Origin: Leptolyngbyaceae cyanobacterium C42_A2020_001
GTDB lineage: Bacteria; Cyanobacteriota; Cyanobacteriia; Leptolyngbyales; Leptolyngbyaceae
Direction of reading: 5' to 3'
DNA: 64,000 bases
Assembly (NCBI GenBank): GCA_015272515.1
Contig: JACYLN010000024.1
Span: 78,073-142,072, forward strand
Shown: positions 18,414-25,953 of the stretch, one piece after another
How positions within the stretch are numbered: position 1 is the stretch's first letter
Layout of the letters: each line of letters opens with the position of its first letter
The notes under the pieces: generated by a model
The model's database searches: none
The model's input: the letters and a program-made list of their open reading frames with translations, nothing else
Told to the model about the DNA's origin: nothing
Translations under genes and position numbers: made by a program

Positions 18414-18644
18414 TTAGTTCTGTGCGATTGGGCGTTTGAATAATGCATCCAGATAAATGCGAGAAGCCTGACGATGATTCAGTTTTTCGGGTGCGGCTTC
18501 GGACTGGTTTTGCAACAAGAACAGGGAGAGAGCAGCGGTAATCACCCGATCTTGATCCCAGTCGGGGCGCATTTCTAAATAGCTTCTAAGAGACTCGTGC
18601 AGAATTTCGGGAACTTCTACCAAAAGGCTCACAGTGGTATCCAT
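18414..18644 (-). CDS. DUF2811 family small protein, copy 1
   Basis: VSLLVEVPEILHESLRSYLE...WDQDRVITAALSLFLLQN...YLDALF. Confidence 0.85.
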   Translation of the reverse strand: MDTTVSLLVEVPEILHESLRSYLEMRPDWDQDRVITAALSLFLLQNQSEAAPEKLNHRQASRIYLDALFKRPIAQN

Positions 18645-18802
18645 AGAATTTAGGCTCTGGAAAATAAATGAACTAGCAGGCGCGATCGCATCTCAACGGC
18701 AAAGCCACTGTGCCTCACAGCAAATTTGATTTCCCAAACGGCTCAAAGCCTTGTGGAATATCGTTTGTGGAGACTCAGCTAACGACTTATGTTGGTCGCA
18801 TC

Positions 18803-18831
18803 ATTCTCAGTCGAATTTCATCGCTTGTCAA
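18803..18831 (-). promoter_or_regulatory. Candidate sigma70 promoter of DUF2811 copy 1
   Basis: Minus strand reads TTGACA-17 nt-GAGAAT. A direct repeat TGTTGCGA (18832-18839 and 18842-18849) abuts the -35 element. Confidence 0.4.
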
Positions 18832-18974
18832 TGTTGCGAACTGTTGCGAGACGTTTTAGATCAAAAAAAGCTTTACGAGAGAATCGGCATTTGAGGGCAT
18901 TTTTGTTTACTTAACTTCACAAAAACTTGCTTTCAAGCGTTACGTAACCGGGAAAAATCGAAAGTCATCAAGGG

Positions 18975-19100
18975 TGTGGAAAAGTCCCATTCTGTCGTGG
19001 CGCTTGTGGAAAACAAGAAAAAAAGTGTGGAAAACGTGTGGAGAGGGTGTGGAAAAGGACAGATTTTACTGTGGAAAGAGTGTGGATTTTCTGGGGAAAA
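18975..19100. promoter_or_regulatory. Array of 8 co-oriented DnaA-box-like 9-mers (TGTGGAAAA = TTTTCCACA on the minus strand)
   Basis: Boxes start at 18975, 19005, 19026, 19037, 19048, 19070, 19081 and 19092; four are perfect TGTGGAAAA. Confidence 0.75.
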
Positions 19101-19137
19101 ACAAGGCAATTACTAATTTTTGTAAATTTCTAGAATT

Positions 19138-19214
19138 AGGAGTCAGGGGTTAGAAGTCAGGAGTCAGGAGTTAGAAGCCAGGAGTCAGGAGTCAGGAGTC
19201 AGGAGTCAGGAGTG
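19138..19214. repeat. STRR-type heptamer tandem repeat (AGGAGTC)n, 11 units
   Basis: Direct reading: aggagtc aggggtt agaagtc aggagtc aggagtt agaagcc aggagtc x4 aggagtg. Confidence 0.9.
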
Positions 19215-19363
19215 AGAAGGATTTTAGATTACAGACTAAGTAGACGAGTCAGGAGTGACCAATTCCCGATTACCAACTACCGATTACTATTGCTAATCAC
19301 TCATCATCAATCTCCAATCCCCAACTCTCACTTTCCTCACCTTCCCCATCTTCACCACCTTCC

Positions 19364-20806
19364 CTATTCTCCGTCGCTGCCTGCCTTCTGCCGCTGATAG
19401 TGTTCCTTAAAAAGCCGTTGCTGAATGCTGTGATCGACGATCGCGTCTGGGTAGCCGCAGCGATCGCGTTCAAAAGACGAGATCTTACCGGAAACCAACT
19501 CTTCAGTATCAACGCTGCGAAGTTCGGGTAGCCACTCGCGGATGTATTCTGCTTCTGGGTCAAATTTCTTTGCCTGGCTGGCTGGGTTGAAGATGCGGAG
19601 GGGTTTGGGGTCCATGCCACTGGATGTGCTCCATTGCCAGCCACCGTTGTTGGCAGAAAGGTCACCATCAATTAGCTTTTGCATGAAGTACTTTTCCCCC
19701 AAACGACCATCTACCAGCAAGTCTTTTGTGAGGAAACTGGCGACAATCATGCGGCAGCGGTTATGCATCCAGCCAATTTCGTTCATCTGGCGCATGGCTG
19801 CATCCACAATGGGGTAACCTGTTCGCCCTTCGCACCAGGCTTGAAACAAGTCATCCTGGTTTGACCAGGGAAAGTTTTTGAAGGGTTGGCGGTAGGGTCC
19901 GTCTGCCAGTTCTGGAAAGAAGAATAGGGCGTGTTGATAAAACTCCCGCCATGCCAGTTCTTGTTGCCAGGTGCGGATGCTGGCGCGGGCTTCGTCGCTG
20001 CGGGTCTGCTCCATTGCCTGGAGGGTGGCTGCCCAAACGGTACGAATCCCGATCGCGCCAAATTTTAGGGCTGCACTGAGTTGGGAGGTGCCGGGATGGG
20101 CGGGAAAGTTGCGTTGTTCTTGATAATCTGTGATGGCGCGATCGCAAAACTCGGCTAACTTCTCGGATGCGCCTGCTTCTCCGGGTTCAATGACCAGGGG
20201 TGTTGTCCGAACAAAGCCCAAATCTTTTGCGGTGGGTAATTCAATGGCTCCTGCTGCACGAGCTAATTCCTGTTCTTTCTCGGTAAGACCGCTTGCCTGG
20301 GTTAGCGTTGCAGCGGGTTTAGCTTTGGCTTTGCTGCTCCAGTTGCGCCAGAAGGGGGTGTAAACCGTGTAGGGTTGTCCTGCTCCGGTGGTAACTTCTT
20401 GGGGGGCATGGAGGAGTTGATCCCAGAAGGGACAGACTTCGATCCCCTGTTCCCGTAAAGCGGCGGCAACGGTGCGATCGCGCGCTCTGCCATACGGCTC
20501 CACATCCTGATTCAGAAAAACGGCTTTGGCATTTAGCGCCGTTGCCAGCTTCACAATTCCCTGGTCGGGCGTTGCCTGCAAAATTAACAGTTGACTGCCT
20601 ACCTCGGCGTATCGTGCTTGCAGCGCTTGCAAACAGCTAATCATATACGTAACTCGTGCCGGAGCCACATCATCTCGCTGCAAAATGTTGGGGTCGAGAC
20701 AAAACACACCCACCACTTTGGGGCTGCGCTGGCGGGCAGCGGCTAGCCCCACGTTGTCTGAAATGCGTAAGTCGCGTCGATGCCAAAATAGAATCAAATC
20801 AGCCAT
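19364..20806 (-). CDS. phrB: Deoxyribodipyrimidine photolyase (class I CPD photolyase)
   Basis: [55 protein letters not shown] and NNGGWQW. Start placed at ATG 20806. Confidence 0.93.
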
Positions 20807-24446: not shown

Positions 24447-24447
24447 C

Positions 24448-25056
24448 TTACCCCGGTTGAGCCGAGCTTTCAGAGCTGGCAGCATCAATCGCCGTACCCA
24501 ATTCAGATGCCATGCGCTCTTTATCCAAACGGCGCTTGCGGGCATAAAGCTGAATCGCTGCTGCCATGCCCACCACCATTGCCGCAATCAGCCAGGTTGC
24601 CGCATCGGTCGGGAAATTATTCTTAAACACTGCCAGCATCACAACCGCGACGAACAGCACGGTAGGAAATTCATTGAACCAGCGGAATTGCTGCCCGGTC
24701 ATGCGGCACTCATCAGCCGCCAGCTTTTTCATGATGCGTTTGCAGTAGTGATGATATCCCACTAGCAAGACAACAAATGCCAGTTTGATGTGCATCCAGG
24801 GTTGCTTCAAAACATCGGGTTCCGTGATTACTAGCCCGATCGCCATGGCGATCGTCAGCAGCATCGCCGGAGTCATGATGATGCTATAGAGCCGCTTCTC
24901 CATGACCTGGTATTGATTTTTCAATACAGTGCGGGCAGGTTCCGGTTGCTCATAGGCTTCGGCATGATAAACAAACAGCCGAGGTAGATAAAACATGCCC
25001 GCAAACCAACACACAATGCCGACGATGTGAAATGCTTTGAACCAATAATAAGCCAT
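24448..25056 (-). CDS. hemJ: Protoporphyrinogen IX oxidase HemJ
   Basis: WFKAFHIVGIVCWFAGMFYLPRLFVYH, MEKRLYSIIMTPAM, WMHIKL, RWFNEFPT. Confidence 0.95.
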   Translation of the reverse strand: MAYYWFKAFHIVGIVCWFAGMFYLPRLFVYHAEAYEQPEPARTVLKNQYQVMEKRLYSIIMTPAMLLTIAMAIGLVITEPDVLKQPWMHIKLAFVVLLVGYHHYCKRIMKKLAADECRMTGQQFRWFNEFPTVLFVAVVMLAVFKNNFPTDAATWLIAAMVVGMAAAIQLYARKRRLDKERMASELGTAIDAASSESSAQPG

Positions 25057-25251
25057 GTGAAACCCTCTTATAAATTGGAGATTTTTAGGATTTTAGATGG
25101 AATGAATCTGGAGAGACGGGGATGGGGTACGAGGTATAGGGTGGTATTAACCACAGGATTTGAACCTGTGCAAACCCGATCATGCCTTATTAGAGAACAC
25201 TTTGGCGAAATGTATTGAAATCTAAAATCTAAAATCTCTCATGCTTAAATC

Positions 25252-25452
25252 CTAAGCGGGCTGCTTGAACAGGCTATCGAGATAGACCTGGGCTGCATGG
25301 CGATCGCACCCCCCATTTTGCAGCAGAAACAGAGACACCGCCGCCGAAAATAAGCGGTCTTGGTCCCAATCCGCATGAGAGTCTAAGTAGCGCGAGACTG
25401 AGTCATAGAGTTCTTCAGGGATTTCTGCCAGGATGCTAACGGTAATGTTCAT
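25252..25452 (-). CDS. DUF2811 family small protein, copy 2
   Basis: MNITVSILAEIPEELYDSVSRYLD...WDQDRLFSAAVSLFLLQN...YLDSLF. True start is probably ATG 25452, not 25635. Confidence 0.85.
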   Translation of the reverse strand: MNITVSILAEIPEELYDSVSRYLDSHADWDQDRLFSAAVSLFLLQNGGCDRHAAQVYLDSLFKQPA

Positions 25453-25664
25453 GCGAACCTCTAGTGCTGAACAAGTGAACTGAACAAAATGGACTGAAAC
25501 GCTTTGCAATACACCCTGTTGAAAACCGCAGAGGTGGGTAACCGACAACGATAGAAGCTGGCTTGCAAATCGCTGCTGTTCTCCTGGTGCTGCCCTCATT
25601 ACCTGCACCTGCTGATGCGAAATCAGCCGATGCAAACACGAGCATTGCGGAGGTAAGTCGCCTC

Positions 25665-25694
25665 ATTTTGTCCAGCCCGAGGCTAAGTTGTCAA
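25665..25694 (-). promoter_or_regulatory. Candidate sigma70 promoter of DUF2811 copy 2
   Basis: Minus strand reads TTGACA-18 nt-CAAAAT. Confidence 0.35.
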
Positions 25695-25868
25695 CGGAGT
25701 GAAAATGCGTAGTGTGAGGCTGGGGGAAACACCTGCTTATGAAAGAATCGGGGTTTGAATGCGATCCCCGTTACATATCTCAATATTCTTGAAATGGTTT
25801 CTGCCTGGGACATTATGCTATCCCGATACTGCTCAAAACCCCCCGAACGTCCATTTCTCGTTCTCCCC

Positions 25869-25953
25869 TGTGGAAAACTCTTTAAAACCTGTGGAAAAAA
25901 TTGGGGAAATCTGTGGAAAGTTTGTGGAAACTCTGTGGAATGCGTGGGGAAAA
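25869..25953. promoter_or_regulatory. Second array of 7 co-oriented DnaA-box-like 9-mers
   Basis: Boxes start at 25869, 25890, 25902, 25912, 25923, 25934 and 25945; two are perfect TGTGGAAAA. Confidence 0.75.

Follow-up and report, generated by a model that had tools for sequence, protein, structure and literature searches.

We analysed a stretch of 64,000 nucleotides from the draft genome of Leptolyngbyaceae cyanobacterium C42_A2020_001 (contig JACYLN010000024.1, positions 78,073 to 142,072, forward strand), hereafter the window, in which two genes of the small protein family DUF2811 (Pfam PF10929) each lie downstream of an array of boxes identical to the DnaA box of the chromosomal origin. 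The gene and the array form a cassette of fixed geometry that recurs throughout the Cyanophyceae, and we regard DUF2811 as a candidate partner or target of DnaA because gene and sites decay or vanish in nearly every sampled lineage without dnaA. There is little doubt in our view that DUF2811 is functionally tied to DnaA. On balance we favour a reading of these sequences in which DnaA would control the expression of DUF2811, and DUF2811 would be a small acidic protein working with DnaA.

Two DUF2811 genes with upstream box arrays in the window

Two open reading frames (ORFs) on the minus strand of the window match PF10929 over model positions 1-57: copy 1 at 18414-18644 (76 aa; E-value 2.3e-24, 85.9 bits) and copy 2 at 25252-25452 (66 aa; E-value 6e-27, 94.2 bits), for a model of 57 positions with a gathering score of 26.6 bits. 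A six-frame search of the 5.55-Mb draft genome recovered the same two copies, with scores of 85.2 and 93.3 bits, and these were the sole ones. The two proteins share 55% identity. Copy 2 is of the canonical type, and its protein is 94% identical to that of a close genome, Leptolyngbyaceae JSC-12; copy 1 represents a paralogue type seen at the level of the family.

The box reads TGTGGAAAA on the plus strand and TTTTCCACA on the minus strand, which is that of the genes. Array 1 (18975-19100, minus strand) contains 7-8 co-oriented boxes, with starts at 18975, 19005, 19026, 19037, 19048, 19070, (19081) and 19092, comprising four exact boxes, two with one mismatch and two weaker sites, and lies 331-456 bp upstream of the ATG. 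Array 2 (25869-25953, minus strand), 417-501 bp upstream of the ATG, has box starts at 25869, 25890, 25912, 25923, 25934 and 25945 and comprises two exact boxes, three with one mismatch and two weaker sites; on the gene strand these follow each other as TTTTCCCCA, CATTCCACA, GTTTCCACA, CTTTCCACA, (weak site), TTTTCCACA and TTTTCCACA, at offsets 0/11/22/33/(44)/55/76. Start-to-start spacing in both arrays is 11, 21, 22 or 30 bp. A preliminary description of this DNA, made from the sequence alone, had reported two DUF2811 genes each with a co-oriented array of 7-8 boxes 330-500 bp upstream and a TTGACA -35-like element between array and gene, all of which we recovered at both copies. The "mostly 11-bp spacing" that it gave applies to array 2, and array 1 is better described by multiples of ~10.5-11 bp. 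Exact boxes occur only 90 times in the whole 5.55-Mb genome, both strands included. Arrays 1 and 2 are its largest and second-largest box clusters, each holding more boxes than the cluster just upstream of dnaN (contig C49), and the clustering in both is well above chance.

Downstream of each array we identified a predicted promoter on the minus strand. The promoter of copy 1 (18795-18831) consists of a TTGACA -35 element (18826-18831), a 17-nt spacer, a GAGAAT -10 element (18803-18808) and GATGCGAC (18795-18802), and, as a sequence-based prediction, fits the class-wide consensus AACATTTCGCAnCATTGACAA...NANAATGATGCGAC. The promoter predicted for copy 2 (25665-25694) has a TTGACA -35 element (25689-25694), an 18-nt spacer and a CAAAAT -10-like element (25665-25670). 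From TTGACA to the ATG there are 187 nt in copy 1 and 242 nt in copy 2. Copy 2 follows the canonical plan, with a box at 25877 and TTGACA at 25694, a distance of exactly 183 bp. In copy 1 the box at 19005-19013 stands at the canonical 182 bp from the -35 element, and an additional proximal box (18975-18983) lies 152 bp from it, three helical turns nearer.

The spacers between array and promoter each hold a conserved element on the minus strand, CCGATTCTCTCGTAAAG at 18871-18887 in copy 1 (class consensus CCCTGATTCTTTCGTAAA) and GATTCTTTC at 25741-25749 in copy 2. On the distal side of array 2, the motif TTGCAATTCTTAT (25966-25978, minus strand; core AATTCTTAT) is located 21 bp 5' of the first box. 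It falls within the AT-rich stretch previously noted upstream of this array, in which we found this conserved motif and no conserved unwinding element. Three further features concern copy 1. Its leader has two weak DnaA-box-like sites (18752-18774, minus strand; TGTGGAATA and TGTGGAGAC as read on the plus strand) that are not conserved class-wide. Only this paralogue has the perfect palindrome GTTACGTAAC, which takes the place of the canonical TGGGGATTTT in its spacer (18939-18948). Between the stop codon of a photolyase gene and array 1, heptamers (AGGAGTC/AGAAGTC units) are repeated in tandem at 19140-19215.

Conservation and geometry of the cassette across the Cyanophyceae

We searched 301 genomes, ~135 of Cyanophyceae and ~166 of non-photosynthetic sister classes; related species in these samples are not independent observations, and counts of absence refer to the genomes searched. 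DUF2811 was present in 125 of the ~135 Cyanophyceae genomes, and in none of the ~166 sister-class genomes save for one sub-threshold match. To describe the loci, 100 DUF2811 genes from ~80 cyanobacterial genera were retrieved with 5 kb on either side, and boxes with at most one mismatch were counted in 100-bp bins. Summed over the 100 loci, bins held 1-10 boxes outside the interval from -600 to -300 relative to the gene and 19, 102, 139 and 30 boxes there, the counts of 102 and 139 belonging to the bins from -500 to -300, against a background of ~3-4. About 95% of the boxes in this peak share the strand of the gene. At least two co-oriented boxes were found at -700 to -200 in 81 of 98 DUF2811 loci, versus 14 of 1627 control windows taken from the same loci. 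The preliminary description had held that a lack of arrays upstream of DUF2811 homologues elsewhere would count against the module; the comparison made here did not refute it.

Spacing within the arrays was 11 bp in 68 cases, 21 bp in 56 and 22 bp in 54, with hardly any other value, and the pattern 0/11/22/44/65 recurs across families. Also across families, the distal boxes are the weaker ones (TTTTCCCCA, GATTCCACA), and the last two before the promoter match the consensus perfectly. In 42 of 70 loci, 182-184 bp separate TTGACA from the start of the proximal box, whereas anything from 136 to 296 nt may lie between TTGACA and the gene; since the former distance is fixed despite the variable leader, the array is tied to the promoter and not merely to the neighbourhood.

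Conserved sequence is found on both sides of the array. Of 94 loci, 53 have the core AATTCTTAT on the upstream side of the array, no further away than 120 bp and in 25 cases at a distance of exactly 21 bp. The core often takes the form TTGCAATTCTTAT and is kept even where the boxes have decayed. On the 3' side, the conserved region runs on through TGGGGATTTT, GTAACAAAAA and CCCTGATTCTTTCGTAAA and ends in a promoter block made of AACATTTCGCAnCATTGACAA, a C-rich spacer (CCCACCCCC), NANAAT and GATGCGAC. In 45 of 58 loci, 19 bp separate TTGACA from NANAAT. The optimum for sigma-70 promoters is 17 bp, and spacers as long as 19 bp are typical of promoters needing DNA distortion or supercoiling; the over-long spacing suggests a promoter in need of help.

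We also observed that the array is bracketed by two related motifs, AATTCTTAT on the 5' side, 21 bp before the first box, and GATTCTTTCGT on the 3' side, ~126 bp beyond the last. Lying roughly 20 helical turns apart (25966-25974 and 25741-25749 in the window; loci L012-L111), they could be loop anchors. Promoter-proximal boxes in the leader were considered as general loop partners and rejected, as only a minority of loci, mostly from Nostocaceae, have them.

Loss of DUF2811 together with dnaA

The presence of dnaA was assessed by a search for the DnaA ATPase domain in the same 301 genomes. It was not found in 15 Cyanophyceae genomes of this main sample, all at least 99% complete. DUF2811 was present in every dnaA-positive Cyanophyceae genome (~134 over all samples), and all 10 genomes without DUF2811 in the ~135-genome sample fall among the 15 without dnaA (G071, G077, G161, G181, G197, G213, G219, G221, G227 and G279). 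Of the other dnaA-less genomes, G273 has a spurious match only, sub-threshold and inside a 480-aa ORF, G209 and G215 have DUF2811 pseudogenes with in-frame stops, and G074 and G269 retain an intact ORF. In a further genome (G297), dnaA was detected as two weak pieces only and DUF2811 is truncated. Within one genus of Nostocaceae, the identical 6 of 20 species lack both dnaA and DUF2811, and the other 14 have both. Both genomes of family f24 are without dnaA; one is also without DUF2811, and the other has kept the ORF, with the whole upstream module lost and otherwise invariant positions substituted.

Taking all samples together, we obtained 21 dnaA-less genomes in addition to G297 with its dnaA fragments. 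Sixteen of the 21 have no credible DUF2811 match, two have stop codons in the gene and three (G074, G269 and G313) have an intact DUF2811, two of these three without an array. Sorted by family and genus, the 22 genomes form eight groups and represent at least six independent losses of dnaA, as counted by taxonomic group and not on a species tree; DUF2811 is gone or decaying in at least one member of seven of the eight groups. To control for the detection of short genes and for general genome erosion we used DUF2555, a small cyanobacterial family of 55 positions, which was intact in all 21 tested genomes with no dnaA or with fragments of it, G297 included. Reported dnaA-less lineages comprise the Cyanobacterium/Geminocystis clade, the Epithemia symbiont and Nostoc azollae (Ohbayashi et al. 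2020, PMC7198777).

Where the gene or its remnant persists, the boxes are mostly affected, which is indirect evidence that these sites may depend on DnaA. They are mutated or the array is deleted in G074, G209, G215, G297 and G313, but G269 still has three boxes. In G074 the array is gone and AATTCTTAT and the promoter remain, while a congener with dnaA (G183) has 4-5 boxes; in two small dnaA-less genomes the boxes have mutated to TTTTCTACA or TTTTCCATA; G297 has lost the array and kept an intact promoter. That G074 has retained promoter and ORF despite losing its boxes suggests that DnaA is not required for basal expression of DUF2811. The link to DnaA that the preliminary description had drawn from the boxes is strongly backed by this co-loss.

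Paralogues, plasmid copies and copy number

A maximum-likelihood tree was built from 102 DUF2811 proteins, which are short, and its deep branches are unresolved. In this tree copy 1 forms a clade (support 98/85) with a copy from G231 and another from G277, which belong to the same family but to two other genera, and both of these copies carry arrays of 5-6 boxes; copy 2 is placed with the canonical type. The two copies in the window are therefore old paralogues and not recent duplicates. Together with the class-wide coupling of array and gene, this bears out the earlier suggestion that the arrays are kept by selection and do not stem from recent duplication. The two paralogues are on separate contigs in both G231 and G277; we saw no sign there that the 7-kb adjacency of the copies is conserved, and we treat it as incidental.

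DUF2811 occurs in 1 to 3 copies per genome. Picocyanobacterial genomes have 2-3, in two ancient paralogue clades, each with its own boxes. The full module is also found on large plasmids such as pCC7120alpha (plasmid alpha) of Nostoc PCC 7120. Taken with the paralogue clades, this shows that the cassette duplicates as a unit. Around the two plasmid copies of DUF2811 that were inspected, the neighbouring genes include no par, rep, replication or partition genes, and a search of a phage collection returned no DUF2811.

Comparison with the replication origin and other box clusters

As previously noted, dnaA and dnaN are absent from the window: dnaA is on contig C97 and dnaN on contig C49. Directly upstream of dnaN lies a cluster with boxes in both orientations, which is the expected origin. 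It uses TTTTCCACA, the same 9-mer as both arrays, in agreement with the initial identification of the box as the DnaA box of oriC. GC skew changes sign near dnaN on C49 and does not do so at 97-104 kb of contig C70, where the arrays are; skew is weak in this genome, making this modest evidence. No unwinding element or TAG/GAT trio repeats beside the boxes were seen by eye in the aligned consensus, which was not scanned systematically. The arrays do not form the single locus expected of oriC: there are two, 7 kb apart, with dnaN and dnaA on other contigs, and 2-3 copies occur elsewhere. Domain IV of Cyanothece DnaA binds TTTTCCACA, best as pairs 2 nt apart (an 11-bp period), as determined by electrophoretic mobility shift assay and footprinting (PMC4674748).

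Two smaller clusters were observed outside the window. Three co-phased boxes (21 and 11 bp; G000:C89:93249-93289) precede a gene for a group-2 RpoD-like sigma factor by 115-155 bp. They are oriented against this gene and follow closely after ppk, and the cluster may be another DnaA target. Three exact TTTTCCACA boxes (31 and 21 bp; G000:C82:19998-20058) lie in the 3'-to-3' gap between the convergent guaA and a gene of 521 aa without NCBIfam match, with no promoter nearby.

The DUF2811 protein

The residues S6, P12, E13, W29, D30, D32, A37, S40, L41, F42, L43, Q45 and L58 (copy 2 numbering) are invariant. The family is acidic, with a median isoelectric point of 4.9 and a median net charge of -4, and in 77 of 102 members the 11 residues leading up to the invariant Pro-Glu contain neither Lys nor Arg, a stretch that corresponds to where a ribbon-helix-helix (RHH) protein would put its DNA-reading strand. 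Searches of 58 members against Pfam at E-values up to 5 returned no RHH or other family, and a sequence-profile search of the PDB with DUF2811 returned only chance-level matches to Cas2. An AlphaFold2 monomer model built from a 58-sequence alignment has three helices, no strand and a disordered N-terminus, at low confidence (pLDDT, the predicted local distance difference test score, of 60), and a Foldseek search of this low-confidence model against the PDB gave nothing below an E-value of 0.5. An exhaustive profile search of 1.84 billion representatives yielded 574 members; among the 150 of these that were listed, all short (42-202 aa), there was no obvious fusion partner.

The preliminary description had inferred an RHH DNA-binding protein from a guess at secondary structure. 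We found no further support for this fold: the protein is acidic and has no basic N-terminal strand, and the searches gave no RHH family or fold match. Judged from its sequence, DUF2811 is unlikely to bind DNA directly, and a role through protein contacts appears more likely.

Neighbouring genes and RNA search

The neighbours of the two DUF2811 genes in the window encode a nuclease, a photolyase, a UPF0093 protein and an SLH/GHL10 protein. A Rubisco-activase-like AAA+ protein with a C-terminal RbcS-like domain, encoded at 22176-23516 on the minus strand, seems ordinary for the group. An Rfam search of window positions 18000-26500 with E-values up to 1 gave no match to a known RNA, either in the leaders or in the spacers.

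Proposed mechanism and alternative explanations

Among the roles considered in the preliminary description, a DnaA-sensing locus with its own small gene is the one favoured by the evidence. We propose that the cassette be read on the gene strand as an ordered unit: the AATTCTTAT motif, the phased array, a motif-bearing spacer of ~183 bp, the TTGACA promoter, the variable leader and DUF2811. Within the array, weaker boxes repeat every 11 bp on the distal side, and the end nearest the promoter has two consensus TTTTCCACA boxes. DnaA, probably as a cooperative ATP-DnaA oligomer nucleated on these two consensus boxes, would fill the array. DnaA bound there would then set the promoter 183 bp away, probably through a wrapped or looped complex making use of the other conserved motifs, so that the output of DUF2811 would report the level or activity of DnaA. 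The acidic protein of 66-76 aa would in turn act by protein contacts, feeding back on DnaA or serving as a checkpoint effector further downstream. The parts of this proposal differ in strength. It is very likely, given their sequence, that the boxes are DnaA sites, and they probably control transcription of DUF2811; that DUF2811 acts back on DnaA is a more tentative suggestion. We infer from sequence data the occupancy of the array by DnaA and any action of DUF2811 on DnaA, and DnaA might either activate or repress the promoter.

A bolder version, which we offer as a conjecture that may well prove wrong, is that DUF2811 is the missing lineage-specific DnaA regulator of oxygenic cyanobacteria, equivalent in function to Hda, YabA, SirA or Sda. 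The ATP-DnaA oligomer on the upstream array would directly govern transcription of DUF2811, in a feedback loop tuning initiation and chromosome copy number, and this loop would explain why dnaA is kept where it is dispensable for replication.

Several observations weigh against the control of DUF2811 by DnaA as we propose it. The array lies ~180-260 bp upstream of the -35 element, a large distance for a simple operator or activator site. DUF2811 is intact in the dnaA-less G074, G269 and G313, and these genomes may reflect some DnaA-independent role or a loss that lags behind. Co-loss itself amounts to functional dependence and is silent on which way the dependence runs. A DUF2811 copy on an Acaryochloris plasmid has no boxes, and in two loci (L105 and L054, from G167 and G023, of one genus that we take to be Synechocystis) all boxes are TTCCCCA variants that keep the 11-bp phasing, and TTTTCCACA is absent. 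Synechocystis PCC 6803 can replicate without DnaA (PMC7198777).

It is possible, though on the whole unlikely, that the array serves as a DnaA reservoir or nucleotide-state switch comparable to datA and the DARS sites of E. coli or to the DnaA-box clusters of Bacillus, mainly titrating or remodelling DnaA, with DUF2811 as an accessory made beside its site of action and not as the regulated output. Such a function would suit the largest DnaA-box clusters of the genome, exceeding the origin; the succession of a high-affinity anchor and phased sites of low affinity is reminiscent of oligomerisation regions, the conserved motifs bracketing the array could bind an architectural partner, and co-loss with dnaA fits equally well. 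Titration needs, however, neither strict co-orientation nor a 183-bp register with a promoter. Moreover, copy number varies from 1 to 3 per genome, and for an acidic protein a DNA-bound accessory role would have to run through DnaA. We consider it improbable that some protein other than DnaA occupies the boxes, be it a response regulator reading the 11-bp direct repeats or DUF2811 itself as an RHH autoregulator of an iteron- or centromere-like site, as the preliminary description had allowed. Direct repeats of 11 bp are typical of OmpR/PhoB-type regulators and of some RHH operators, and the predicted secondary structure of DUF2811 is an unstructured N-terminal segment followed by helices, but the 9-mer equals the DnaA box of the origin, and the boxes decay specifically in dnaA-less genomes while flanking motifs and promoter persist. 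The iteron or centromere variant also meets the evidence against an RHH fold, the family being acidic and without RHH family or fold match, and no partition gene, including a partition ATPase, was present among the neighbouring genes inspected.

Auxiliary or cryptic replication origins, the remaining option raised earlier, appear very improbable to us. Phased DnaA boxes do adjoin A+T-rich DNA here, and many cyanobacteria replicate from multiple sites (PMC7198777). Against this stand the two arrays only 7 kb apart and the 2-3 copies in small picocyanobacterial genomes, the coincidence of the canonical dnaN cluster with a skew change that has no equivalent at the arrays, boxes that all point one way in a fixed register with a promoter, and, by eye and without a systematic scan, no conserved unwinding element or TAG/GAT trios beside the boxes.

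Relation to known systems and significance

The control of DUF2811 by DnaA, as favoured here, has its closest likeness in sda of Bacillus subtilis and hdaA of Caulobacter, which have DnaA boxes upstream and whose products feed back on replication or the cell cycle, the sda product being very small. By analogy, expression of DUF2811 would report initiator activity. DUF2811 differs in having no detectable sequence or fold similarity to any characterised protein, and in having its array ~180-260 bp upstream of the -35 element, in a fixed 183-bp register, instead of within or close to the promoter. Consensus boxes also cluster outside oriC in E. coli, at datA, DARS1 and DARS2, which work with architectural factors, and such non-origin clusters modulate DnaA availability or the expression of target genes; to our knowledge cyanobacteria have HU and no known IHF. 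The DUF2811 array differs from these clusters, and from those of B. subtilis, in being tied class-wide to one gene at one orientation and distance, and in being duplicated with that gene, plasmids included. For B. subtilis, eight intergenic DnaA-binding regions are reported (Ishikawa 2007, as cited in PMC7198777).

Among origins, the oligomerisation regions of E. coli oriC have a high-affinity anchor and boxes 2 bp apart (an 11-bp period), an arrangement suiting a cooperative ATP-DnaA filament. The anchor box followed by weaker co-oriented boxes in the DUF2811 array recalls the left and right DnaA-oligomerisation regions as outlined in PMC10325909. In contrast to E. coli oriC, the array has no adjacent unwinding element that we could see, is not unique in its genome, does not lie beside dnaA or dnaN, and faces a promoter. 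The arrays share the TTTTCCACA box with the cyanobacterial oriC upstream of dnaN (S. elongatus, Cyanothece 51142; PMC4674748); unlike the origin cluster of the present genome, with its two box orientations, they are unidirectional and contain more boxes.

Our literature search found no paper containing "DUF2811", none on the pairing of array and DUF2811, on a DnaA-linked small protein or on a non-origin DnaA target in cyanobacteria, and no description of a cyanobacterial DnaA regulator. Searching with the box sequence gave unrelated primer matches only, and a 2019 mBio paper contains no genome-wide DnaA binding data. Bacillus, Caulobacter and E. coli are already known to have non-origin DnaA-box clusters and DnaA-regulated genes, and the cassette is a lineage-specific variant of this general kind; the co-loss of DUF2811 with dnaA is a new finding of this work.

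The array outnumbers the origin in consensus boxes, and origin predictors that count boxes could plausibly mis-call it as an origin. Cyanobacteria are polyploid, and several model strains replicate without DnaA yet keep dnaA. Mutants deleted for dnaA are available in Synechocystis 6803, Synechococcus 7002 and Nostoc 7120, and strains with HA-tagged DnaA have been published for S. elongatus PCC 7942. The presence of the cassette in almost every sampled DnaA-bearing cyanobacterium, with its decay or loss in nearly all DnaA-less lineages sampled, provides a concrete target site and a candidate partner protein for DnaA in these organisms.

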